Counted from the stretch's first letter, positions 9,903 to 56,076 are shown. The stretch: DNA of 64,000 nt from an uncultured cyanobacterium (GCA_963744145.1 CAVUSO010000001.1:3840001-3904000), one strand, 5' to 3'. Numbers and translations: made by a program. The notes: a model not told the origin generated them from the letters alone.

Positions 9903-10550
9903 TTAGTCGGTAAGAGACAAGAGAGATACTTCCAGTTTATTCGCAATTCCTGCGATCCAGTTTTCATCTTGCTGAGTATAACTGCGGGGAGCATTAGCAC
10001 CTAAAATCATTGCTCCTTGATGACCAATAGGTTGACAGATCACACCTTGAGTATTTTCGGGTAAATAGTTAAATTCGATTTTGCCAGGATAAATTTTGAG
10101 ATCAACTAGATAGACTGGTTTTTGTTGATCTAATACTCGCTGTAAAATTTGACCTGGTTGGACATGGGCGTTAGGTCCCAAAATGCCCCGTCTTAAGAGG
10201 ACTTTTCCTTGATAATATATGACCAGCGATCGGGTGACTGTATTAGTTAGTAATAAATGGGAAGCCCAAGCTAGTTCGGTTTTCAGATTATCGGGTAATT
10301 CTGATGCTAGTTCAAATCCTTCTGCTCCAATTAAATTTACTATATCGGGCGATCGGGGTTGGACTCGTTGCCATAATAACCCAACTAAAATTAATACAGC
10401 ACTTAAAATCACCCCTAGTACATCGGAGCGAGATTGGGAGTTGGTTAGCTGAGGTGTGAAGGTGCGATTGATCAGTAATAGCACCCCTGCTAACCCACCA
10501 ACTACTATGGGGAGCAGTCGGAGAATTTGATTTGGATCTGATTTAGTCAT
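9903..10550 (-). CDS. Cofactor assembly of complex C subunit B (CCB2/CCB4 family)
   Basis: Two TM segments, SQSRSDVLG, GAF-like C-terminus YLPENTQGVICQPIG. Confidence 0.8.
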   Translation of the reverse strand: MTKSDPNQILRLLPIVVGGLAGVLLLINRTFTPQLTNSQSRSDVLGVILSAVLILVGLLWQRVQPRSPDIVNLIGAEGFELASELPDNLKTELAWASHLLLTNTVTRSLVIYYQGKVLLRRGILGPNAHVQPGQILQRVLDQQKPVYLVDLKIYPGKIEFNYLPENTQGVICQPIGHQGAMILGANAPRSYTQQDENWIAGIANKLEVSLLSLTD

Positions 10551-24354: not shown

Positions 24355-24599
24355 GCAGTCAGGAAAGGTGGAGTGGCGATCGCCTCATTTCTGGGCCTCA
24401 TAGCAGCGCGATCGCACCATCCCCAACTTCCCCAAAACAATTTTCCAGCTAAACTGCATAAACTCCCTAACTCCCCACGAGAAAGATATATAGGAGTTAC
24501 ACAAGGATTACAAACTATCGGAGGTAGGTTGTATAAATTAGTTCACTGCGATCGATATAACTTTAGTTACTCAAAGATGACTTGGGAGTAGTCACTAGA

Positions 24600-26120
24600 A
24601 TGGCAGACCTAATTGAGCGATTTTCGACTTTTCAAGGAATGGCAGACCTAATTGAGCGATTTTCGACTTTTCAAGAAGTCAATCCCCATCGTCGCCAAGT
24701 GCAGGATTCTAAGCTAAGACAAAATTTGCATTGCTTGCTAGAACAGTATCCAGAACTCAATGATGAAACAGCGTTGCTGAGATATTTCTGCAATGCTGCT
24801 GAGAATAACTCGGATTCATTAGCACGTTGTCATCTACTTGCTTATGTAGATTCTGCTTGCTATTCAGCAGCGATCGCAACTTACCAAATCTTCCGCACAC
24901 CGGATCTCACTTTGGAAGACTATCTGCAAATTGCCAGAGATAAAATTGCTCCCTGTCTTATTCAATTATGCGCTCAGTACGATCCCAGTCAAAGCCAAAT
25001 CACAACTTATGCTTCTCCGTTCCTCCGCAGTGCTATTATGAGCGAACTGCGTTGCCACCAAGAAATAGAAAGGCGGAGTGATTGGTCGCTGTTGCGAAAT
25101 TTCTCGAAGACTAAGCGGAAAAAAGTTTTAGATAAATTTGGAATCAAAGAGCCAAAATTATCTAATTGTTTGCTAATTTGGCAAGGCTTTTCAGAAGTTT
25201 ATGCCCCAGTTAAAGCACGGAGAAATCCGAAATTACCACCGCCAACTGAGAAACAATGGCAGGCGATCGCCCAATTTGGCAACGAACAGCAATTACCGCA
25301 CTCAGTTAAACCCTTCACCGTGCAGGACAGCCAAGAATTGTTAGGAATTTGCGTTAATGCGCTGCGAGAACCTAGTAGAATTAATTTGTATTCACTCAAT
25401 GAAGACAACCGAGATTTAGAACTAGAGATCACTAAAAAATCCCAGCAGCAAGTATGGTACAGAGAACAACAAACGGCTGAATCTGAGCAATACCAACAGG
25501 TGAAAATAGAATTAGCCAGCGCGATCGCCTCCCTCCCTGCTGATGCCCGAAAAATGTTAATCTTAGAACATGGCTTCATCGGATTTAACCAAAGTTACAT
25601 CGGTCAAGAGTTCGGCATCCAGCAATATCAGGTTTCTCGAAATTTAACTGGCTACAAACGCCGTCTCTTAGAAGTTTTGGTGCAGTGGAGTCAAAGACAA
25701 CTAGGTGTTAATTTGAGTTTAGAAACTGTCAAACGCCTATCAATTTATCTCGATGAGTGGCTGATTTGGTATTGCCAAAATACTATTCTGTACAGGTTTT
25801 TGGAAGCCGTTTTGAGGCTGCATCCTGCCCTTAAGTTGGAAATTAAGTTGTTGTATCGCTATTATGGGATGAGTTTACCAGGAAAAGCAGATGAAAGAGC
25901 GATCGAGATCGCCTGGGAATTTAACCTGGCACAAACTGAGTTGCAGGAAAAGTTAATGCAAGTTAAAACAACTTTGCAAGAACAGTTACACCAATGGCTA
26001 CAGCAAACTCTTGCACTCAAACCCTGTTCTCTAAGAGTGATGAATAATTCCTCAGCATTGTTAGTAGAACAGTTTTTAGCCAACGCGCCTTATGCCCTTT
26101 TAATCAGCGAACGGAGGTAA
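24600..26120 (+). CDS. Divergent sigma-70-family-like protein of the cyanobacterial sigma/DUF1822/CHAT cassette
   Basis: DLIERFSTF, HLLAYVDSAC, YDPSQS.ITTYA, SDWSLLR; region-4-like HTH FNQSYIGQEFGIQQYQVSR. Confidence 0.75.
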   Translation: MADLIERFSTFQGMADLIERFSTFQEVNPHRRQVQDSKLRQNLHCLLEQYPELNDETALLRYFCNAAENNSDSLARCHLLAYVDSACYSAAIATYQIFRTPDLTLEDYLQIARDKIAPCLIQLCAQYDPSQSQITTYASPFLRSAIMSELRCHQEIERRSDWSLLRNFSKTKRKKVLDKFGIKEPKLSNCLLIWQGFSEVYAPVKARRNPKLPPPTEKQWQAIAQFGNEQQLPHSVKPFTVQDSQELLGICVNALREPSRINLYSLNEDNRDLELEITKKSQQQVWYREQQTAESEQYQQVKIELASAIASLPADARKMLILEHGFIGFNQSYIGQEFGIQQYQVSRNLTGYKRRLLEVLVQWSQRQLGVNLSLETVKRLSIYLDEWLIWYCQNTILYRFLEAVLRLHPALKLEIKLLYRYYGMSLPGKADERAIEIAWEFNLAQTELQEKLMQVKTTLQEQLHQWLQQTLALKPCSLRVMNNSSALLVEQFLANAPYALLISERR

Positions 26121-27301
26121 TGAAAATGGTATTCAATTTAGAACAATTAAGCCTAGCCTGTCCCCATCATCTCTGGCTAGAGTTTTCGGAAAAAGAACAG
26201 GAAAAAGCTGTTTCTGTAAGACTGGATTACTCCCATGATGCAGCAAGTCATCGCGCTTTCTTAAATCGGCTGACTCTGGCAGTTTTGTTACCTGTATTGC
26301 AAGCAGAATCTGAAGCATTTACCCAAATTACATCCCCGGAAAATATTTGGGAATTTGTGACAGGTTTTGCCATCAGTTTGGGTAAAAATCGCTTGGTAAT
26401 TATTGCAAGTGAAACCATTGATACTGATGAATTTTCTGTGCCTCAAGAATGGGTAGATATTCCTGAATGGGCGGCTGATTATTATTTGGCTGTGCAGGTG
26501 AATTTAGAGGATGGATGGTTGCGGGTGTGGGGGTTTACAACCCATCGAAAACTGAAAAATGAAGGTAGGTATGATCGGGGCGATCGCACCTATTCTCTCA
26601 ATGGAGAAGATCTGTTTGAGCATCTCAATACTTTGTGGGTTTCTCTGAAACTTTGTCAAGGAGAAAAAGCGTTGATTGAACCTTTACCCGTCTTATCTTC
26701 TAACCAAATAGAGATGCTATTGGTAGAATTAGGTAAACCTTCTCTTTATTCCCCACGTTTGAAAATACCTTTTGCACAGTGGGGTGCGCTATTAGCTGCT
26801 GATAATTCAAGGCAAGAATTGTATCAGCGACGGTTGGAAAATGTGCCTAATATTGTGCAATTGGGTAAAAATATTTTCCCTGATTGGTGGCTAATGTTTG
26901 ATGAGTTAGTGCAAGCGTGTAACCTCAATCTTTCCTTTGCTAGAAGTGGAGCGCGATCGGGGGATAATGAAGAGCGTACTCCGGGAATTAGTCGGGGACG
27001 AGTGATTGATTTGGGGATTCAATTGGCGGGTAATTCTATGGCGCTAATTGTGCATTTCACTAAGGAATCAGAGAATAAACATAACATTTTGTTACAGGTA
27101 AATCCGGGTGGGGGTCAAACTTATTTACCGCCAGATGTGGAATTGATTGTATTAGATGATACGGGTGATGTGTTTTTGGAAGCGCGATCGCGCAGTGCTG
27201 ATAATTGGATTCAATTGGAGTTTCGGGGTGAGCCTGGGGAGCGGTTTAGTGTTAAGGTGGCTTTAGGGGATGCTAGTATTATGGAATATTTTGCAATCTA
27301 A
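26120..27301 (+). CDS. DUF1822 family protein
   Basis: VPQEWVDIPEWAADYYLAVQV, WGFTTH, SRSADNWIQLEFRGEPGERFSVKV. Confidence 0.88.
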   Translation: MKMVFNLEQLSLACPHHLWLEFSEKEQEKAVSVRLDYSHDAASHRAFLNRLTLAVLLPVLQAESEAFTQITSPENIWEFVTGFAISLGKNRLVIIASETIDTDEFSVPQEWVDIPEWAADYYLAVQVNLEDGWLRVWGFTTHRKLKNEGRYDRGDRTYSLNGEDLFEHLNTLWVSLKLCQGEKALIEPLPVLSSNQIEMLLVELGKPSLYSPRLKIPFAQWGALLAADNSRQELYQRRLENVPNIVQLGKNIFPDWWLMFDELVQACNLNLSFARSGARSGDNEERTPGISRGRVIDLGIQLAGNSMALIVHFTKESENKHNILLQVNPGGGQTYLPPDVELIVLDDTGDVFLEARSRSADNWIQLEFRGEPGERFSVKVALGDASIMEYFAI

Positions 27302-27319
27302 CCTAACCAGGAGAAAACA

Positions 27320-30319
27320 ATGAGAAAGTTAGTGATGCTGATTTTTGAAGAAAAGGGAGACTTGGAAAGAGTAGGTTTTTCGGTAACGTTACGACTAGGG
27401 GACGAGGGGCAAACTTTGCCTACTCAGCAAACTGGATCTTTACCGTCAAACCCGGAACTGGTTGAGTCTTACAACAGTTGGAAAGAAACTTATGATGGCT
27501 GCTTTATTAGGGTAAATGGTAGTAGATTAGAACAGCCAGCAAAACAAATAACTAACTTCTCAATTCCAGAGGTTGAGATAAAATCTGAGAATTTGAGGCA
27601 ACAATTTAATGACTGGTTACAATCGCAGCAATTGAATAATGTTAGGCAAGAATTAGTTGCCCTAGTTGCCAATTTACAAGAAAATGATGAAGTGCGGTTG
27701 ATTATCCAAACTTCAAATACACAGCTACAGAAACTTCCCTGGCATCTTTGGGATATATTGAGAGGTTGCCCTAAAGCTGAAATTAGTGTCAGTCCGCACA
27801 ATTTCAGTCCGCGGCCCAGTGTTAGAAAAAGAACATCAGCCAAATTTGCTAATAATCAAGTTAATATTTTGGCAATTTTGGGCAATGATAAGGAAATTAA
27901 TGTTGAAGAAGATCGAAGAATATTAAATTCTATTCCGGGTGCTAAAGTTAAGTTTTTAGTTAAACCCGAGCAACGAGACATCGACAATGAACTCAGGGAA
28001 AAGTCTTGGGATATTCTATTTTTTGCGGGACATAGCCGCACGGAGGGAGAAAAAGGAATCATATATATTAATTCGACTGAGAGTTTAACTATCGGTAACT
28101 TAAATTATGCGTTAGAAGAGGCAATTAGAAACGGTTTACAAATAGCAATTTTTAACTCTTGTGATAGTTTAGGGTTAGCTAAAGATTTAGCTGATTTGAA
28201 TCTCCCTCACATGATTATCATGCGAGAACAGGTTCCTGATAAAGTGGCACAGGAATTTTTGAAATATTTTCTGGGTTTTTTTTCACAGGGTCAGTCATTT
28301 TATTTAGCGGTTAAGAAAGCACGGGAAAAATTGCAGAGTTTGGAAAATCAGTTTCCCTGTGCTTCTTGGTTGCCTGTTATCTACCAAAAAAATCCTACTA
28401 AGATACCCCCTACTTGGAAAGAGTTACGGAGAATAGATAAAAAATCAGCTTTTTGTCTGAGCGCGTTATGTTTGGCAGAGGCAGCGGCAGCTTTTCTGGT
28501 ATCGGTAAGTCTTGTCCCATCTCCTGTGAATACTAATCACATTCTGATCTTAGTTTTAGGTGGATTAATCTTTGCCCAATCTCCTCCTGCGATCAAAGGC
28601 AAAAATTTACTAATTATTGCTGTAATTACTTTACCAATTATTTTTTTATGGCGGAGTTTGCAAGGTGGTTTTGGTTTGGAAATTGTGATCGGTATAGCAG
28701 CTTTAGCTGGATTAGGTGTGATCGCGATGGCATTGCATAATGTCAGGATGATTTCCCCATTTTTCAGACGAATTTTCATCGCTTTCAGCCGTCGATTCAT
28801 CCCCTGGATTAGCAACGCCTTGCGGTTTGGAGTTAGATTACAGGTTTTAGTATTGCTGAGCTTGGGCATCGCAATGTTGGATAGTAATCCTCCCTTTAAT
28901 CTTCACTTTAGTTTGGGTGACAAACCCCTTTTTTATAATGGCACGGATGTGACAGCAAAAAAGCTGCTAGATACCGGGGTGTTTGTTTATAATGGCACGG
29001 ATGTGACAGCAAAAAAGCTGCTAGGTATCTGGGAGTTTGCCCTGCTGGGAAATGGCCTGGGACATTATGAATGTGCTAGGGATGCCTTCGACAATTATCT
29101 AAAGCAAAATCCAAATGACCCAGAGGCTTTAATTTATAAGAATAATGCGATCGCCCGTCTTTCTGGTCGTCCACCTCTTCGCATTGCCGTCAGCGTTCCC
29201 ATTGGCAGTAACCCGGACGTTGCTGCTGAGATTTTACGAGGTGTTGCTCAGGCTCAGGCTCAAATTAATAATGATGCAAACGGCATTAATGGTGCCAAGT
29301 TAGAAATCAAACTTGCTGACGATCGCAACAATCGCGCCCTTGCAGCAAGTATCGCGCATACTTTTGTTCATGATCCCCAGGTTCTTGCCGTTATTGGACA
29401 CAATGCAAGTAACGCTTCTCAGGCGGCTGCTCCCATCTATAACAGGAATCACCTGGTGATGATCACTCCCACAAGCTTTGCAAGCGCAGTAACTAATAGC
29501 GACTGGCCTTATATTTTTCAAACTACTCCTACAGCTGAGAAATATACCAAAAGATTAGTCAATTATATTGTCAAAACTGATAATATTAAGAAAGCCGTAT
29601 TTTGTTTTGACTCTAACGCGCAAGATAATAACGATTTCAAAAAGGCGCTCTCTAAATCCTTAATCGAACTTGCTAACACAAGTGAATGCGATGTTAGGTC
29701 ACAATCATTCAATGCGGATGATGCAATTCAGGAAGCTAATGATAGAAATGCACAAGCCTTGATCGTCAATCCTTTTATAGACGAGATTGATAAAACCGCA
29801 AAGCTATTTAATGCCAACACCAATAACGATCCTCCCTTGCATCTGTATGGGTCGTCCACATTCAATACCTTTAAGACCTTAAGTATGGGAGCAGCAATCG
29901 AAAACCTTGTCATTCCAGTCGCATGGTATCCAGATTTTTATACAAAGACTAAGTTTGTTGAGGAGGCCACAAACCTATGGGGAACATCCTCTATCAATTG
30001 GCGTACCGCCATGAGTTATGATGCAGCCGAAGCAATCATTACAGCTTTACTGCAAATCCCATCTAGATCCGATATCAAAGACATTCGATCCGATATCAAA
30101 GAGACTCTATTAAAAAAAGACTTTTCAGTAGAAGGAGCAGAAGGGACAGCTCGACCAGTGAAATTTGATAGCAAAGGTGGCCGCAGCTGCGATCTTCCTA
30201 TTTTATTACTCCAAGTGAAACAGAAAGACCCCTCAAACCCCAAGACAGAATATGGTTTTGTACGGTTGGACGTTCCTGATCCAGAGGATAAATCGACGGT
30301 TGAATGCGATAAAAATTAG
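27320..30319 (+). CDS. CHAT (caspase-like) protease domain + TM segments + LivK-type periplasmic binding domain
   Basis: LPWHLWD, DILFFAGHS (His), IFNSCD (Cys); TM block; NPNDPEALIY, EILRGVAQAQ, VLAVIGHNAS, NWRTAMSYDA. Confidence 0.88.
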   Translation: MRKLVMLIFEEKGDLERVGFSVTLRLGDEGQTLPTQQTGSLPSNPELVESYNSWKETYDGCFIRVNGSRLEQPAKQITNFSIPEVEIKSENLRQQFNDWLQSQQLNNVRQELVALVANLQENDEVRLIIQTSNTQLQKLPWHLWDILRGCPKAEISVSPHNFSPRPSVRKRTSAKFANNQVNILAILGNDKEINVEEDRRILNSIPGAKVKFLVKPEQRDIDNELREKSWDILFFAGHSRTEGEKGIIYINSTESLTIGNLNYALEEAIRNGLQIAIFNSCDSLGLAKDLADLNLPHMIIMREQVPDKVAQEFLKYFLGFFSQGQSFYLAVKKAREKLQSLENQFPCASWLPVIYQKNPTKIPPTWKELRRIDKKSAFCLSALCLAEAAAAFLVSVSLVPSPVNTNHILILVLGGLIFAQSPPAIKGKNLLIIAVITLPIIFLWRSLQGGFGLEIVIGIAALAGLGVIAMALHNVRMISPFFRRIFIAFSRRFIPWISNALRFGVRLQVLVLLSLGIAMLDSNPPFNLHFSLGDKPLFYNGTDVTAKKLLDTGVFVYNGTDVTAKKLLGIWEFALLGNGLGHYECARDAFDNYLKQNPNDPEALIYKNNAIARLSGRPPLRIAVSVPIGSNPDVAAEILRGVAQAQAQINNDANGINGAKLEIKLADDRNNRALAASIAHTFVHDPQVLAVIGHNASNASQAAAPIYNRNHLVMITPTSFASAVTNSDWPYIFQTTPTAEKYTKRLVNYIVKTDNIKKAVFCFDSNAQDNNDFKKALSKSLIELANTSECDVRSQSFNADDAIQEANDRNAQALIVNPFIDEIDKTAKLFNANTNNDPPLHLYGSSTFNTFKTLSMGAAIENLVIPVAWYPDFYTKTKFVEEATNLWGTSSINWRTAMSYDAAEAIITALLQIPSRSDIKDIRSDIKETLLKKDFSVEGAEGTARPVKFDSKGGRSCDLPILLLQVKQKDPSNPKTEYGFVRLDVPDPEDKSTVECDKN
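28729..28819 (+). mobile_element. 91-bp MITE-like element (left end of a composite cassette), translated in frame within the CHAT gene
   Basis: Terminal inverted repeats GGCATTGC...GCAACGCC; 76/91 ungapped identity to the reverse complement of 30269-30359. Confidence 0.8.
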
Positions 30320-30998
30320 TCCGAAAAATTGGAAAATCATACTGCCATTATGCAACGCCCTATTTCGACGTATTTACAATTCTCTGTCTCAGCAAAATAA
30401 AACTACAGTTTTAATCTTATCTTTATTAATTCCAGCAGGGTTTTGCATCTGGTGGTTTATGCCGCCTGATAGTTGGTGGTTTATGTCGCCTGATAGTTTT
30501 GCGAAAGTGTCCAATGTTCCCTCCGGATCTTTTTTTTATGGAGGAAGTACCGCTTGGGCACCAATTAGTCACGTTGTAAATTCTGTGATTGAAAATATAT
30601 GGCCTCAGTTTAAATTGAGTTATAAACAACCTAATACTGACGCTCCTGAATCAAGTACTGGGATTAAAATGCTTTTAGATAATCAGTTAGCATTTTCTCA
30701 GTCTTCTCGCCCTGTGAAAGATGAAGAATATAAAGCTGCTAAACACAAGGTATTTACCCTCAAAGAAGTAACGATCACTATTGATGGAATAGCGTTTATA
30801 GTTAAACCGAATTTAAATATTACTGGTTTAAATTTAGCTCAGATTAAAGATATTTATACTGGCAAAATTACCAACTGGAGTCAAGTCGGCGGTCCGAACC
30901 AAACAATTATCCCTTACTCTCTTCATAGTGGAAGTGAAACCATAGATTTTTTGATAGAAAACATTTTAAAAAACGAGAAGCTGGGCGAGCAGGTTTGA
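30252..30998 (+). pseudogene. Truncated PstS-like (PBP2) binding domain with TM anchor; probable displaced C-terminus of the CHAT gene
   Basis: FAKVSNVPSGSFFYGGSTAWAP, FSQSSRP, IYTGKITNWSQVGGP; stops part-way through the domain. Confidence 0.75.
30269..30359 (-). mobile_element. 91-bp MITE-like element (right end of the composite cassette)
   Basis: Inverted copy of 28729-28819, ending in GCAACGCC. Confidence 0.8.
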
Positions 30999-31018
30999 TC
31001 GCTTAACATGAAACAAAA

Positions 31019-31309
31019 ATAAGCGCATCTTTTCTGGAACTTTCTAACTACCAAGTAGAAGCTTCAACACAATAAGAAGCTATCGAAAAATTGAACGAAA
31101 TCTTACATATTCGTTTGGAAAAACTAGAGATTATTCCAGTAGAAATTGAATGGCAACCCGCTCAAAAACCGGAGAATCCTTGGGTAAAATTTGCAGGCGT
31201 TTTTCAAGACAATCCCGACTTCACTGAGATTGCAGAAAGTCTTAGAAAAGAGCGTTTAGCTAACGATGATGCAATTAGCGATCGCCACTTTCACGCCCAA
31301 ATAATATAA
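31019..31309 (+). pseudogene. HicB-like antitoxin remnant
   Basis: LELSNYQVEASTQ*EAIEKL...NPWVKFAGVFQDNPDF with an in-frame TAA at 31073. Confidence 0.6.
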
Positions 31310-33462: not shown

Positions 33463-34899
33463 ATGCTTGTATGGAAGGAAATTATTATGTCTTGGGTCGA
33501 AAAATTTAATGAGTCGCATATTAAAGCCTTTTATATAACCTTGAAAGGTATGCCCAAAATAGTATTGAATGAGTGGAGCCAAGCAAGAAATATGGATGAC
33601 TTGAGGGAACGGGTATCAGAAAAGGTAAAGAAAAATATGAAAGAGGAAACTATCAACCAGCACAAGACAACAATTAAAGAAAAACTCAATGATTACATTA
33701 AAAAATATTTGCTGACCGAAGAAGAAAGGTCAGAAGTAGAACAAGTAAAAAGTGAAGTTAGAAAAAACAGAAGAAGAACAAATTTAATCCTGAACACACC
33801 AACAGAGCTACTTGGGTTTATTGGTAAGTATCAATCAGTGTTTAATGCTCTTAGAGAAGGAGATCCTGGTTGTCTAACTCCATCTATCACATACGAACTA
33901 CATATAATCATTAAATCTACGTTGACAATTGTAGAGAAAATTAGTTTTCTAAGCAGACTAATTGAGACAAATCCAGAGATTATTAATCAAACCGATGAGG
34001 ACGGATGCACGCCACTCTTTACTGCTGTGGCAATGAATCAACCAGAAATTGTCGATTTTTTAGTAGGACAAGAAAATATTAAAATAGATATATCTAATTA
34101 TTACGGATGGACACCATTTCATAAAGCGGCGAATATCGGTTCTCTAGAAATAGCTCAAATATTGGTAGAATCTGGAACGATGATAGATAGACTTACTCGA
34201 ATGAATGCAAATGCTGTTTATGAAGCGGCTTACGGTTGTGATGACATAAATGTAGTTAAATATCTTGTAGAAAAACAGGGATTAGATATCAATATATCTA
34301 CCATAGATCAATTTACACCTCTGACTACAGCTATCTGGCGACAAAATTATCAAATTGCTAAATATTTAATTGAATCAGATAGACTAACAAGCATTAATGT
34401 CAGAGATATTAGAGATGAGAATGCTCTTTATAAAGCTATTTCACAAGGATGTTTTGATTTGGCTCAAATTCTTCACGAAAAAGGTGCAGAGTTCCATCGT
34501 CCTAGACTTTTATCATCCCGATCTATCACTAATGTAAATCCTCAAAAAACTTCATTTTTTGAAGCTGTGGAAAGAGATGATTTTAGGACAGCCAAGCAAC
34601 TTATTGAAGGAGAAACTGATCAAAACAAAAAAGAGCAAATGGTTAATCAAGTGAAACACCCTTATCAGCGAACATTATTATCTATTGCCGCCCAAAATGG
34701 CAATCAAGACTTGGTTAAACTTTTAGTTGAAAACGGAGCAAATGTATTCGCTAGAAATAATCATGGCAGAACACCTAAAGAGATGGTATTAATCCCAAAT
34801 AATGAAGAAGTTTACAGGTATTTAGACGAACAAGAACAGATCGTGAACCCCAATCCCAGTGAAGATGAACTTCGCCATCGCTATGGTGAGGCAACATAA
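33463..34899 (+). CDS. Ankyrin-repeat protein with putative N-terminal HTH-like domain
   Basis: GCTPLFTAV, GWTPFHKAA, FTPLTTAI, RTLLSIAAQNG, GANVFARNNHGRTP. Confidence 0.88.
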   Translation: MLVWKEIIMSWVEKFNESHIKAFYITLKGMPKIVLNEWSQARNMDDLRERVSEKVKKNMKEETINQHKTTIKEKLNDYIKKYLLTEEERSEVEQVKSEVRKNRRRTNLILNTPTELLGFIGKYQSVFNALREGDPGCLTPSITYELHIIIKSTLTIVEKISFLSRLIETNPEIINQTDEDGCTPLFTAVAMNQPEIVDFLVGQENIKIDISNYYGWTPFHKAANIGSLEIAQILVESGTMIDRLTRMNANAVYEAAYGCDDINVVKYLVEKQGLDINISTIDQFTPLTTAIWRQNYQIAKYLIESDRLTSINVRDIRDENALYKAISQGCFDLAQILHEKGAEFHRPRLLSSRSITNVNPQKTSFFEAVERDDFRTAKQLIEGETDQNKKEQMVNQVKHPYQRTLLSIAAQNGNQDLVKLLVENGANVFARNNHGRTPKEMVLIPNNEEVYRYLDEQEQIVNPNPSEDELRHRYGEAT

Positions 34900-37514: not shown

Positions 37515-38450
37515 ATGCCAATCCAACCACCGTCTTCCACTATTTCCCCAACTGAACTACCACTACAACCACTACTACCAACCATGTATGATCTCCCTAG
37601 TGAGGACCCGGAGGAACCTGGTTTGCCCGATGAATTTCATTCGTTACAACCCCCATTACTGAGTCATACAATTCGTTTACAGGATTATCCCAAAGAGCGA
37701 ATTTTTACCGGCTCTGATTTAAACATCTATTACGATGTCAATCACACTCTTTGGCACAAACGTCCCGACTGGTTTCTGGTAATTGATGTACCCAGACTCT
37801 ATGAAGGTAGAGATTTACGTGATAGTTATGTAATCTGGCAAGAAAAAGTCAATCCGGTAGTGGTGATTGAATTACTATCTCCTGGAACGGAAAAAGAAGA
37901 CCTAGGAGAAAGAGCAGAAAGGGAGGAAGAAGAGGGTGAAAATGGTCAAGAAATACGGAGAGAAAATCTACCCCAAAAAGCTGAAATTCCACCGACCAAG
38001 TGGGAAGTTTATGAACAGATTTTACAAATACCTTATTATCTAGTATATAGTCGTCGTCGCGATCGGCTACGTCTATTTAAGTTAGAGAAAGGTAGATATC
38101 AAGAACAAGCATTAAACCCAACACAACAAGGATTTTGGCTGACAGATTTAAAAATTGGGATCGGGATCTGGTTAGGGGAATATGAAGGAATAAATCGACC
38201 CTGGTTACGCTGGTATGATGAAACTGGGAATTGGTTACCGACAGCAACAGAATTAGCCCATCAAGCTGAAATTCGGATTGAACAAATTAGCATCGAAGTG
38301 AACCAAGCTAAAATTGAAATTGAACGAGCTCACTCTGAGGTTAAACAAGAACGACAAAAACGGCAAGAATTATTACAAAAATTAAGTACCCTATCTCCTG
38401 AACAGCTCATTGCTTTAGGAATTAATCTAGGAGATTTTCACGACCAATAA
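37515..38450 (+). CDS. Uma2-family endonuclease (DUF820)
   Basis: LPTMYDLPSEDPEEPGLPDEFH, RPDWF, VIELLSPGT. Confidence 0.92.
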   Translation: MPIQPPSSTISPTELPLQPLLPTMYDLPSEDPEEPGLPDEFHSLQPPLLSHTIRLQDYPKERIFTGSDLNIYYDVNHTLWHKRPDWFLVIDVPRLYEGRDLRDSYVIWQEKVNPVVVIELLSPGTEKEDLGERAEREEEEGENGQEIRRENLPQKAEIPPTKWEVYEQILQIPYYLVYSRRRDRLRLFKLEKGRYQEQALNPTQQGFWLTDLKIGIGIWLGEYEGINRPWLRWYDETGNWLPTATELAHQAEIRIEQISIEVNQAKIEIERAHSEVKQERQKRQELLQKLSTLSPEQLIALGINLGDFHDQ

Positions 38451-46005: not shown

Positions 46006-46824
46006 ATGGTCCAAAGTCTTGACCCTACTATATTACCCCCTCCTTTTCCCGATCATACCCAATTACCTGAATCCGACGGCACCTTCGTGAAAAACTTTCA
46101 AGAACATCCCCAATGTATCTTGCTGACTGACTCTTTGGAAACTACACTGCAAAATCTTCATCCAGATGGTCAATATGCGATCGGACAAGATAGTGGGATT
46201 TATTGGAGAGAAACAGATCCTCCGGAACGGGGAGCGGAAGCACCGGATTGGTTCTATGTTCCTAACGTTCCACCCCTATTAGACGGTCAAGTTCGTCGTT
46301 CTTATGTATTATGGCGCGAATATAGTGTGCCCTTAATTGCGATCGAATTAGCGAGTGGAAATGGTGCAGAAGAACGAGACAATACTCCCCTATCTCGTTC
46401 TTCTGAAAGGAGCAATCAGAAACCCGGTAAGTTTTGGGTATATGAGCAGATTATTCGGATTCCTTACTATGCCATATATATCATCAAAACCAGGGAATTA
46501 GAAGTTTATAACTGGGTGAATATTCACTATCACCGTTTGCAACCAAATGAGCGCGGACATTACCCGATTGATCGGATGGGAGTAGAATTAGGTGTGTGGG
46601 AAGGTAGCTATCAAAATCAGACTAATCACTGGTTACGTTGGTGGGATAGTCAAGGTAATCTGTTGCTCACTGGTAGTGAACAGGCTAAACTGGAACGTCT
46701 TCATACTGAACAGGAACGTCAACGGGCTGATGCTGAAACAGTACGGGCTGATCGAGAACAGCAACAGAAAGAACGATTAGCTGCTTATTTGCGATCGCAA
46801 GGAATCGATCCGGATTTAATTTGA
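46006..46824 (+). CDS. Uma2-family endonuclease (DUF820)
   Basis: PDHTQLPESDGTFVKNFQEHPQ, APDWFYVP. Confidence 0.92.
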   Translation: MVQSLDPTILPPPFPDHTQLPESDGTFVKNFQEHPQCILLTDSLETTLQNLHPDGQYAIGQDSGIYWRETDPPERGAEAPDWFYVPNVPPLLDGQVRRSYVLWREYSVPLIAIELASGNGAEERDNTPLSRSSERSNQKPGKFWVYEQIIRIPYYAIYIIKTRELEVYNWVNIHYHRLQPNERGHYPIDRMGVELGVWEGSYQNQTNHWLRWWDSQGNLLLTGSEQAKLERLHTEQERQRADAETVRADREQQQKERLAAYLRSQGIDPDLI

Positions 46825-54927: not shown

Positions 54928-56076
54928 ATGATGATCTCCCATATAGCTCTGAAAAATTGGCGCAATTTTCAGTCAGTAAATGTTGATTTACGCGATCGCG
55001 TCTTTTTAATTGGTTCTAATGCTTGCGGTAAGTCAAACTTTCTCGATTCATTGCGCTTTTTGCGGGATCTAGCCAAGGTAGGAGGTGGATTGCAGAAAGC
55101 TGTGAGCGATCGAGGTGGTGTATCAAAAATTCGCAGTCTTTATGCAAGGCAATATTCAGATGTAGAAATAGAAATTCAGCTTTCAGAAGCTAATGATAAA
55201 CAGCCATTATGGACATATAAGCTGGGAATTAAACAGAGAAAAGGTGGAAAAAATGAGCCGATTGTTGCATCTGAAGAAGTTTGGCAGGGCGATCGGCAAA
55301 TTGTCGATCGCCCTACTCTAGAAGATAAAAATGATGAGCTACGTCTCACCCAGACTTATTTAGAGCAAATTAATGCCAATGCAGAATTTAGAGAAATTGC
55401 TAAATTTTTAGAGTCGATTTTATATTTACATTTAATTCCTCAGTTAGTTCGCCATCCCGAAGCTTTTGCTATCCCTGGAATTTCGGAAGATCCTTTTGGG
55501 AGAACTTTTTTAGAACGAGTTGCTAAAACTCCTGAAAAAACTAGAAGAGCGCGATTAAAAAAAATTGAAGATGCTTTAAAGTTGGCTATTCCACAATTTA
55601 AAACCCTAACAGATACCAAAGATGAAATGGGAGTTCCCCATTTGGAAGCTATTTACGAACATTGGCGACCAGGAGCGGGAAAACAACGGGAAGACCAATT
55701 TTCTGACGGAACATTACGGTTAATTGGTTTACTGTGGGCACTGTTAGAAACTGATTCATTATTATTACTAGAAGAACCAGAACTTTCCTTAAATGCGACC
55801 ATAGTTAGTAATCTACCATCTCTGATTTATCGTCTTCAGCGTCCGAAAAAGCGACAGGTTATTCTGAGTACCCATAGTGCTGATTTGCTCTCAGACAAAG
55901 GTATTGGTGGTGAAGAAGTGCTGCTAATGACACCCTCTCCTGAAGGAACTGAGGTAAAACTTGCTTCAAGTAATGAACAACTCAAAAGGCTATTAGAAGG
56001 AGGTTTAAGCATAGCTGATGCTGCATTACCTCATACAGTTCCACCCGATATCGAACAACTCATTTCATTCAAATGA
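54928..56076 (+). CDS. ABC/AAA_21-type ATPase
   Basis: GSNACGKSN Walker A, FSDGTLR signature, LLLLEEPE Walker B, STHS. Confidence 0.9.
   Translation: MMISHIALKNWRNFQSVNVDLRDRVFLIGSNACGKSNFLDSLRFLRDLAKVGGGLQKAVSDRGGVSKIRSLYARQYSDVEIEIQLSEANDKQPLWTYKLGIKQRKGGKNEPIVASEEVWQGDRQIVDRPTLEDKNDELRLTQTYLEQINANAEFREIAKFLESILYLHLIPQLVRHPEAFAIPGISEDPFGRTFLERVAKTPEKTRRARLKKIEDALKLAIPQFKTLTDTKDEMGVPHLEAIYEHWRPGAGKQREDQFSDGTLRLIGLLWALLETDSLLLLEEPELSLNATIVSNLPSLIYRLQRPKKRQVILSTHSADLLSDKGIGGEEVLLMTPSPEGTEVKLASSNEQLKRLLEGGLSIADAALPHTVPPDIEQLISFK

Follow-up and report, generated by a model that had tools for sequence, protein, structure and literature searches.

How does a one-component receptor come by a new extracellular sensor? 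The question is raised by a 999-amino-acid (aa) mosaic open reading frame (ORF) in a stretch of 64,000 nucleotides (nt) from an uncultured cyanobacterium (GCA_963744145.1 CAVUSO010000001.1:3840001-3904000; hereafter the window). The ORF encodes, in order, a CHAT module, a block of four transmembrane (TM) helices (the 4TM block), a linker read from a 91-bp repeat, the TM anchor and binding domain of a LivK-type protein, and an end supplied by an inverted copy of the same repeat. We argue that a 1631-bp unit, consisting of two MITEs (miniature inverted-repeat transposable elements) and the gene between them, was probably inserted in the tail of the 4TM gene, with the CHAT-4TM protein now fused to the LivK-type protein and a downstream PstS-like gene orphaned. 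A sensor swap by MITE-bounded insertion is the best reading because of the identity of the repeats, the way they bracket the gene, the contiguity of the outer flanks and the reading frame of the PstS-like part.

Pfam places CHAT at residues 111-350 and Peripla_BP_6 at residues 620-927 of the ORF, and the protein collection holds an identical 999-aa protein (P0001). The features needed for the argument are as follows.

27320..30319, plus strand: 999-aa mosaic ORF, from the ORF list and the Pfam matches to CHAT and Peripla_BP_6
27320..28405, plus strand: CHAT module, residues 1-~362, 63-69% identical to CHAT modules with quite different C-termini
28406..28728, plus strand: 4TM block, residues ~363-470, homologous by blastp and hidden Markov model (HMM) to the C-terminal membrane block of Nostocales Ser/Thr kinases
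28718..28725, no strand: HIP1-like octamer GTGATCGC (7/8), 3 nt left of the junction
28729..28819, plus strand: left 91-bp copy, read as an IS1-family-derived MITE from the family alignment and its ends (family profile E 6e-20)
28820..30268, plus strand: the passenger, a TM-anchored LivK-type (Peripla_BP_6) ORF of 483 codons, delimited by colinearity with stand-alone relatives and by tblastn
30269..30359, minus strand: right 91-bp copy, inverted, from the family alignment (family profile E 2.1e-16)
30360..30386, plus strand: relic of the 4TM-gene tail, LFRRIYNSL, from the kinase-tail HMM, a random-peptide control and a DNA match to 20 kinase tails
30384..30998, plus strand: orphaned TM-anchored PstS-like (PBP_like_2) gene, aligned to stand-alone relatives, its Pfam match cut at 148/267

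The 4TM block and the interrupted coding sequence

The homology source for the 4TM block, its tail, the passenger and the PstS-like gene is a conserved operon of Nostocales, which we collected as 79 loci by a genome scan with the TM-PstS fragment as the query. The operon comprises a LysR regulator, a Ser/Thr kinase of ~465 aa and either one or two PstS-like genes, with a stand-alone LivK-type gene as well in some genomes (for example L016 5715-12181 and L032 7335-12135). Its kinases carry four membrane helices at the C-terminus, and the tail that closes this block, LFRLIYKLLSLIF, is almost invariant; a kinase with the 4TM block was present in 51 of the loci L016-L094. By blastp, the four window helices match the C-terminal block of these kinases with a best E of 3.7e-13, and 51 of the 79 loci each hold one kinase ORF that residues 360-470 of the window protein match. 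Whereas the operon is made of separate genes headed by a kinase, the window has a CHAT module in the kinase's place and its parts are fused. In 24 of 51 loci, the LivK-type gene is found downstream of the kinase at a distance of at most 1.5 kb; it comes straight after the kinase in L016, L023 and L030, and in many loci of Nostoc it comes after the first PstS-like gene. Its position varies by genus (e.g., L016 8517-9935 versus L035 11294-12700), and it is absent in some. We found no paper on this operon, no dedicated search having been made.

The window copy of the 4TM block stops short of its expected end. Of the kinase alignments, 43 extend as far as residue 470, and in 38 of the 43 exactly 15 residues of the kinase are left over, namely the highly conserved tail (T/S)A-LFRLIYKLLSLIF, which is followed by a stop. 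The sequence directly past the right MITE reads LFRRIYNSLS and continues the kinase tail. With an HMM built from 25 kinase C-termini, the left flank alone scored 47.6 bits, and the real protein, read through the MITE, scored 46.3 bits with the MITE peptide left unaligned; the left flank joined through XXX to the right flank scored 60.7 bits and was colinear to profile position 122. In a control, none of 30,000 random stop-free 14-residue peptides, drawn from all six frames of the window and put in the position of the right flank, reached the real 61.7 bits (mean 48.1, maximum 59.3 bits). The joined flanks also resemble 20 kinase tails at the codon level. From the HMM gain, the random control and the codon agreement, we conclude, as an earlier note on this DNA had claimed, that the DNA on the two sides, left of 28729 and right of 30359, formed a single coding sequence in the past, and therefore that the 1631 bp between them are probably an insertion.

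The same note held that the rejoined frame continues into a TM anchor and a PstS-like domain, and this was borne out: the tail relic lies in the same frame as the CTG at 30384, to which residue 1 of the PstS-like relatives aligns. The closest of these relatives (50-54% identical; Spirirestis, Tolypothrix, Scytonema, Rivularia and Calothrix) are stand-alone genes for about 345-355 aa, beginning MSQKNETAVLVL. In the relatives, the kinase tail ends at a stop, and a spacer of 27-50 nt or more precedes the PstS-like ATG; the window tail relic instead runs in frame into SQQNKTTVLIL, where the relatives have (M)SQKNETAVLVL. We infer that an earlier in-frame deletion between two TCT codons would have fused the 4TM gene to the PstS-like gene. 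If that deletion preceded the insertion, the result would have been the single-chain receptor with a PstS-like sensor that the note proposed. Of the ancestral CHAT-TM-PstS receptor that had been postulated, the part that stands is a 4TM gene running in frame into the PstS-like gene; its N-terminal domain at that time may have been CHAT or a kinase.

The PstS-like gene is now a remnant. Its homology ends at residues 221-233 of 344-356, leaving the final ~120 residues (the last third) missing, and in the downstream frame (30252/30360-30998) the Pfam PBP_like_2 match ends at profile position 148/267. The remainder of the gene was not found elsewhere in the window. What is left has no start codon and receives no translation from upstream. 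The decaying relic of the old sensor dates the order of events.

The 91-bp repeats and the gene between them

By ungapped count, 28729-28819 and the reverse complement of 30269-30359 are identical at 76 of 91 positions, reproducing the figure first reported for this inverted pair. A repeat search returned inverted arms of 89 nt (28729-28817 and 30271-30359; 84% complementary), blastn inside the window matched the two copies at E 9.5e-24, and the likeness between them breaks off sharply at either end. The left copy is translated within the CHAT protein, again as previously described, in frame as residues 471-500 of the ORF (frame +1 open), and the right copy gives the ORF its final 16 codons and a TAG stop (30317-30319). 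Neither blastn nor the family profile returned a third convincing copy in the window; a weak profile match at 9969-10059 (E 0.01, 11.6 bits), inside an ORF, was not counted. The hairpin of each copy was no better than those of shuffled sequences (z -0.99 and +1.52), a test that says little because the terminal inverted repeats are only ~25 nt long and imperfect. The outer ends of the pair are well kept (GGCATTGC and GGCGTTGC), and decay has gone further at the right copy's inner end (GACGTTCC), a pattern that would fit use of the outer ends and is not proof of it.

A copy on a Brasilonema plasmid aligns end to end with both window copies and has the same termini, GGCGTTGC...GCAACGCC. As a query against plasmid records, it matched 36 records (41 places), all from Nostocales (Nostoc 19, plus 1 listed as 'Nostoc azollae', Tolypothrix 5, Calothrix 4, Aulosira 3, and others), with at least 80% of the query covered in 13 of the 36; most copies sit where no gene is annotated. 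We aligned 13 plasmid copies and one chromosomal copy (L087) for comparison with the window copies. Perfect 8-bp target duplications flank 9 of these 14 full-length copies outside the window, at least 6 of 8 positions agree in 11 of the 14, and the copy in L002 carries a 10-bp duplication. All 14 have AT-rich flanks (10-15 of 16 bases A/T). A 755-bp element in L014 and L015 has the same two ends as the MITE (GGCGTTGCATAAT... and ...ATGCAACGCC); its ORF matches DDE_Tnp_IS1 at 55.4 bits, and in L014 it is flanked by an 8-bp duplication. The final 25-28 nt of the MITE also match the ends of annotated IS1-family transposase genes. By these sequence comparisons, the 91-bp repeats are MITEs, derived from the 755-bp IS1-family insertion sequence (IS) of Nostocales; the MITE identity suggested from the window is upheld by the same-ended plasmid copies, their duplications and the IS1-family partner.

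The window copies agree with the plasmid consensus at 63/91 and 57/91 positions and represent a diverged subfamily, whose left end is closer to the IS left end than is that of the plasmid MITEs. The 91-bp element has no transposase, and 30-residue peptides are all that its long stop-free frames encode. Frame +1, in which the CHAT ORF reads the element, lacks stops in 10 of 15 copies of the family. Simple insertion would add 91 + 8 = 99 bp (33 codons) and keep the reading frame. Over the 79 chromosomal loci (1.34 Mb), the family profile returned one copy, with none in the kinase-operon spacers and none beside the stand-alone LivK-type genes. Public records place some MITE copies inside a 'hypothetical protein', label them 'putative transposase' or overlap them with the 3' end of a peptidylprolyl isomerase gene (L003 211-552, L006 380-694 and L011 2388-2579); these are likely to be annotation artefacts or further ORF fusions. 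The literature yielded neither a published name for the 91-bp element, in a search that did not cover ISfinder, nor any report of an IS1-family MITE in Nostoc.

The passenger is colinear with stand-alone Nostocales proteins of 465-472 aa (L016, L023, L025 and L030; 34-37% identity), in an alignment that spans the relatives' residue 1, membrane anchor, S-x-G-x-K motif, TPR-like stretch, LivK fold and C-terminal GY(D/G)FV. The TTG at 28820 aligns with the relatives' start, and the left MITE directly abuts that position, in phase with 27320. At the other end, the stand-alone relatives stop 1-9 residues past the GY(D/G)FV motif, and the right MITE starts where the natural end of the passenger is expected. 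The colinearity of 28820-30268 with stand-alone proteins indicates that the passenger is a complete gene. The LivK-type module was thus correctly described as enclosed by the MITE pair, but it is a whole TM-anchored gene and not a mere domain.

The predicted fusion protein and possible routes of insertion

In the scenario that we propose, the starting gene would have encoded a cytoplasmic signalling domain and a four-helix membrane block, running in frame into a membrane-anchored PstS-like protein. The unit 28729-30359, two inverted MITEs around one LivK-type gene, would have entered the last ~13 codons of the 4TM gene. The left MITE contains no stop in the frame of the host gene and adjoins the passenger start in phase, so translation would read through. 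The predicted product comprises CHAT, four TM helices, a 30-residue arginine-rich cytoplasmic loop encoded by the MITE, the passenger TM anchor and a periplasmic LivK-type domain, and the right MITE would end it with 16 codons and a stop. The PstS-like part would have been left with no upstream translation, start codon or last third.

Hydropathy analysis predicts five helices at residues 378-396, 407-425, 429-447, 455-473 and 503-521. The predicted inside loops hold 6, 2 and 6 lysine and arginine residues, the last being the MITE peptide, and the outside loops hold 0; with this arrangement, the LivK-type domain would face outward. By its domains, the window protein fits the class of CHAT receptors, with an N-terminal CHAT, membrane spans and a predicted extracytoplasmic Peripla_BP_6. 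The 3-kb ORF of the fusion is intact while the PstS-like gene has decayed, a contrast that suggests, without proving it, that selection maintains the fusion. We infer that the fusion protein is probably made and functional.

The closest relatives of the CHAT module (P0054-P0099 and P0271-P0285) resemble it as far as FPCASWLPVI(C/F/Y)Q and then continue into NACHT/TPR, trypsin+COP23, TIR, CHASE2 or unknown domains. Since the same module is joined to unrelated C-termini, it has evidently been swapped often. These CHAT relatives occur in Microcoleus, Tychonema and Planktothrix; the relatives of the MITE, the 4TM block, the LivK-type protein and the PstS-like protein are all from Nostocales. Taken together, these relatives point to a filamentous cyanobacterium as the source. 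A CHAT+PBP_like_2 architecture exists in 12 of the 75 long relatives scanned, which were drawn from the 82 of at least 430 aa among the 150 matches listed; these proteins have one TM helix, and none is closer than 44%. Cyanobacterial CHAT-TM-Peripla_BP_6 proteins match the overall architecture of the window protein, both domains being found in 107 of 119 non-self proteins among the matches listed. They are 36-46% identical to it and have one TM helix after CHAT; the 4TM block and the MITE peptide, both present in the window protein, are missing from all of them.

Several observations weigh against the insertion of a unit. The empty site is reconstructed from paralogous kinase genes (~33-47% identity) and not from an orthologue, and the orthologous empty CHAT-TM-PstS allele that the earlier note had proposed to look for was absent from the collections. 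No other protein with CHAT and this 4TM block was found there: residues 366-530 returned only the window protein itself among proteins of 549-1749 aa, the shorter proteins included CHAT relatives, none with the 4TM block, and the kinase-tail HMM gave 0 matches in the other 389 of 390 proteins searched. A 20-base core of the window subfamily had 0 matches in 185,579 species genomes, a collection without the source genome. A plasmid search for a close donor or a second copy of the unit returned no match at the DNA level and, at the protein level, a best match of 38%. The passenger has a G+C content at third codon positions (GC3) of 0.383, against 0.27-0.32 in the flanks and inside the range of neighbouring genes; the suggested comparison of 28820-30268 by homologue and composition thus returned the stand-alone relatives, 34-37% identical, and a GC3 difference too small to be decisive. 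The LivK-type gene is a normal operon member in relatives, where it lies beside PstS-like genes (24 of 51 loci), so the passenger may come from very near, or the locus may have a more complex history in situ.

The ends of the unit also bear on how it moved. A composite structure is present, with two copies of one element around the passenger and the outer ends intact. The unit may have moved as a composite through an IS1-family transposase acting on these outer ends, and we rate this at about even, because no target duplication is present. By eye, the outer flanks ATCGCGAT and CTATTTCG are identical at 1 of 8 positions, so no 8-bp duplication surrounds the unit; the left copy (3/8) and the right copy (2/8) lack one of their own; and none that was convincing was found in any configuration (each copy, outer, inner or inversion-swapped flanks). 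Moreover, by comparison with the kinase tails, the junction has lost ~7 nt, which correspond roughly to the x-T-A codons. The absent duplication and the missing nucleotides show that the last step was not textbook transposition, and the composite cassette of the earlier note cannot be taken as a case of canonical composite transposition.

Nor did the proposed insertion at a HIP1 site (GCGATCGC) hold. None of the 14 family flanks is HIP1, the family duplications are AT-rich 8-mers, and the CGCC of the proposed join is the element's own conserved end. At the A-I-A codons homologous to the HIP1-like octamer, 3 of 20 kinase tails have a true HIP1.

The missing duplication and the ~7 nt lost at the junction would both fit placement of the unit by recombination or repair instead of by a transposase at the outer ends, whether as an excised fragment captured at a break, by microhomology joining, or by a short hop from just downstream of the PstS-like gene, in which case that gene would have lost its end when the donor site was repaired. 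At the right MITE, the end ...AAC GCC with the CTA TTT after it is similar to ACA GCC CTA TTT, the sequence expected of the target, with GCC in common; the inner flanks have T.CGGTT in common (6/9 as a 9-bp repeat); many Nostoc loci have the LivK-type gene just after the first PstS-like gene; and the window PstS-like gene is truncated. Each of these signals is weak, with an estimated ~0.1-0.5 chance matches given the registers tried, and the likeness of the inner flanks falls within chance on that count. The family profile found no MITE remnant at 30998, and no direct evidence of a donor site was obtained. We hold such a placement to be possible, if somewhat unlikely. It is quite unlikely, in our judgement, that no cassette moved and that the LivK-type gene already lay between the 4TM and PstS-like genes when two MITEs inserted independently in AT-rich spacers. 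The order kinase-4TM, LivK-type, PstS-like does occur in L016, L023 and L030, with AT-rich spacers of 24-29 nt; the family inserts at AT-rich 8-mers; and the frame of the MITE frequently lacks stops, so a left copy could fuse ORFs by chance. In those three loci, however, the 4TM gene is complete, with LFRLIYKLLSLIF and a stop ahead of the LivK-type gene, whereas the window 4TM block is 15 residues short at the left MITE and its tail reappears past the right MITE; neither window copy has its own duplication.

That the 91-bp repeats might not be mobile at all, and instead represent either an inverted duplication of local origin or a coding motif conserved in the receptor family, is extremely improbable. 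Only two copies occur in the window, both are stop-free in one common frame, and their hairpins are not significant; against this, end-to-end copies lie in unrelated, mostly intergenic places of 36 plasmid records and at one chromosomal locus, with target duplications and an IS1-family partner that has the same ends, and residues 366-530 have no protein relative in the length range searched (549-1749 aa). These findings effectively refute it. Insertion of a MITE-bounded unit into the 4TM-gene tail is the reading that we prefer.

Genomic surroundings, precedents and significance

The window has a G+C content of 39.4% and holds 63 HIP1 octamers in 64 kb. Three further features lie close to or within the mosaic ORF.

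24582..26120, plus strand: sigma-70-family-like gene (NCBIfam TIGR02937 at 51.7 bits, cutoff 42.9; no match in a Pfam scan)
26120..27301, plus strand: DUF1822 gene (Pfam PF08852, E 4e-85)
28929..29036, plus strand: in-frame tandem duplication (2 x 54 bp) within the LivK-type linker, at 91% identity by repeat search

The sigma-70-family-like, DUF1822 and CHAT genes form a tightly packed triad on one strand (24582-30319); no literature joining the CHAT domain with DUF1822 was found. Further in-frame tandem duplications lie in the LivK-type domain (2 x 21 bp at 30066-30107) and in the PstS-like relic (2 x 24 bp at 30450-30497), and together the three (54, 21 and 24 bp) point to frequent slippage in the region. 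A small ORF of 72 aa in 30999-31309, with no Pfam match, has an in-frame stop inside its own apparent upstream extension and is possibly another broken gene, at the deletion that cut the PstS-like gene. Elsewhere in the window are two Uma2-family putative endonuclease genes (37515-38450 and 46006-46824), an ankyrin-repeat protein gene (33463-34899) and a gene for an AAA_21 (AbiEii-like) ATPase (54928-56076).

Like IS-derived (type I) MITEs, the window element is small, has no transposase and has IS-like ends, and its family is dispersed, with 8-bp AT-rich duplications; it differs in that the window copies have diverged (84% to each other) and lack duplications. Excerpts of PMC6382973 describe MITE pairs that bracket class 1 integrons in Acinetobacter, or a mer region (MITE-297), in the manner of composite transposons, as well as an IS1-family composite with 8-bp duplications. 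The window likewise has two copies of one MITE around passenger DNA. As far as those excerpts go, however, the Acinetobacter composites carry resistance or integron passengers in intergenic or plasmid positions, whereas the window unit carries a single sensor gene in a coding tail, with the MITE read through and no flanking duplication. In-frame fusions of MITEs to host ORFs are known from Rickettsia palindromic elements and from MITEs of Anabaena PCC 7120 (PMC3184786, PMC10969869, in the passages concerned), and the window MITE is similarly stop-free and part of a host protein. The cases set out in those passages add a peptide inside one protein; in contrast, the window MITE peptide acts as a linker that unites two genes once separate, and the extracellular sensor is thereby replaced. 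Nezha, a MITE of Anabaena and Nostoc, is described in part of PMC3184786 as ~130-170 bp long, with A+T-rich insertion sites and ends in common with ISNpu3; compared by that description only, both are cyanobacterial MITEs with AT-rich targets and IS-like ends, Nezha being the longer. MITEs inside proteins, MITE pairs around genes and modular bacterial receptors are known separately, and this locus joins all three in one event. What is new here is the movement of a whole sensor gene into the coding tail of a receptor, with a MITE as the fusion linker and the displaced sensor kept as a relic.

The fusion ties a widespread and apparently undescribed Nostocales operon to the hypothesis that binding proteins signal through the 4TM block. 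The LivK-type and PstS-like proteins of that operon begin with the same anchor, MSQKNET-VLVL, which, together with the 4TM block of the kinases, suggests binding-protein-dependent signalling through this block; complex prediction for the kinase's 4TM block and the PstS-like anchor gave a score of 0.00, which is evidence neither way. A more speculative proposal, which we consider unlikely as it stands, is that the 4TM block serves as a docking platform for MSQKNET-VLVL-anchored binding proteins, and that kinase- or CHAT-headed platforms are re-equipped by MITE-bounded moves of whole genes. Were it true, MITE read-through would turn a non-covalent partner into a covalent fusion, the window would show an intermediate stage on a general route by which receptors diversify, and this route would have left its trace in the shifting place of the LivK-type gene within the operon. 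If the unit can be mobilised, the locus would provide a concrete, testable mechanism by which one-component receptors exchange their extracellular sensors.

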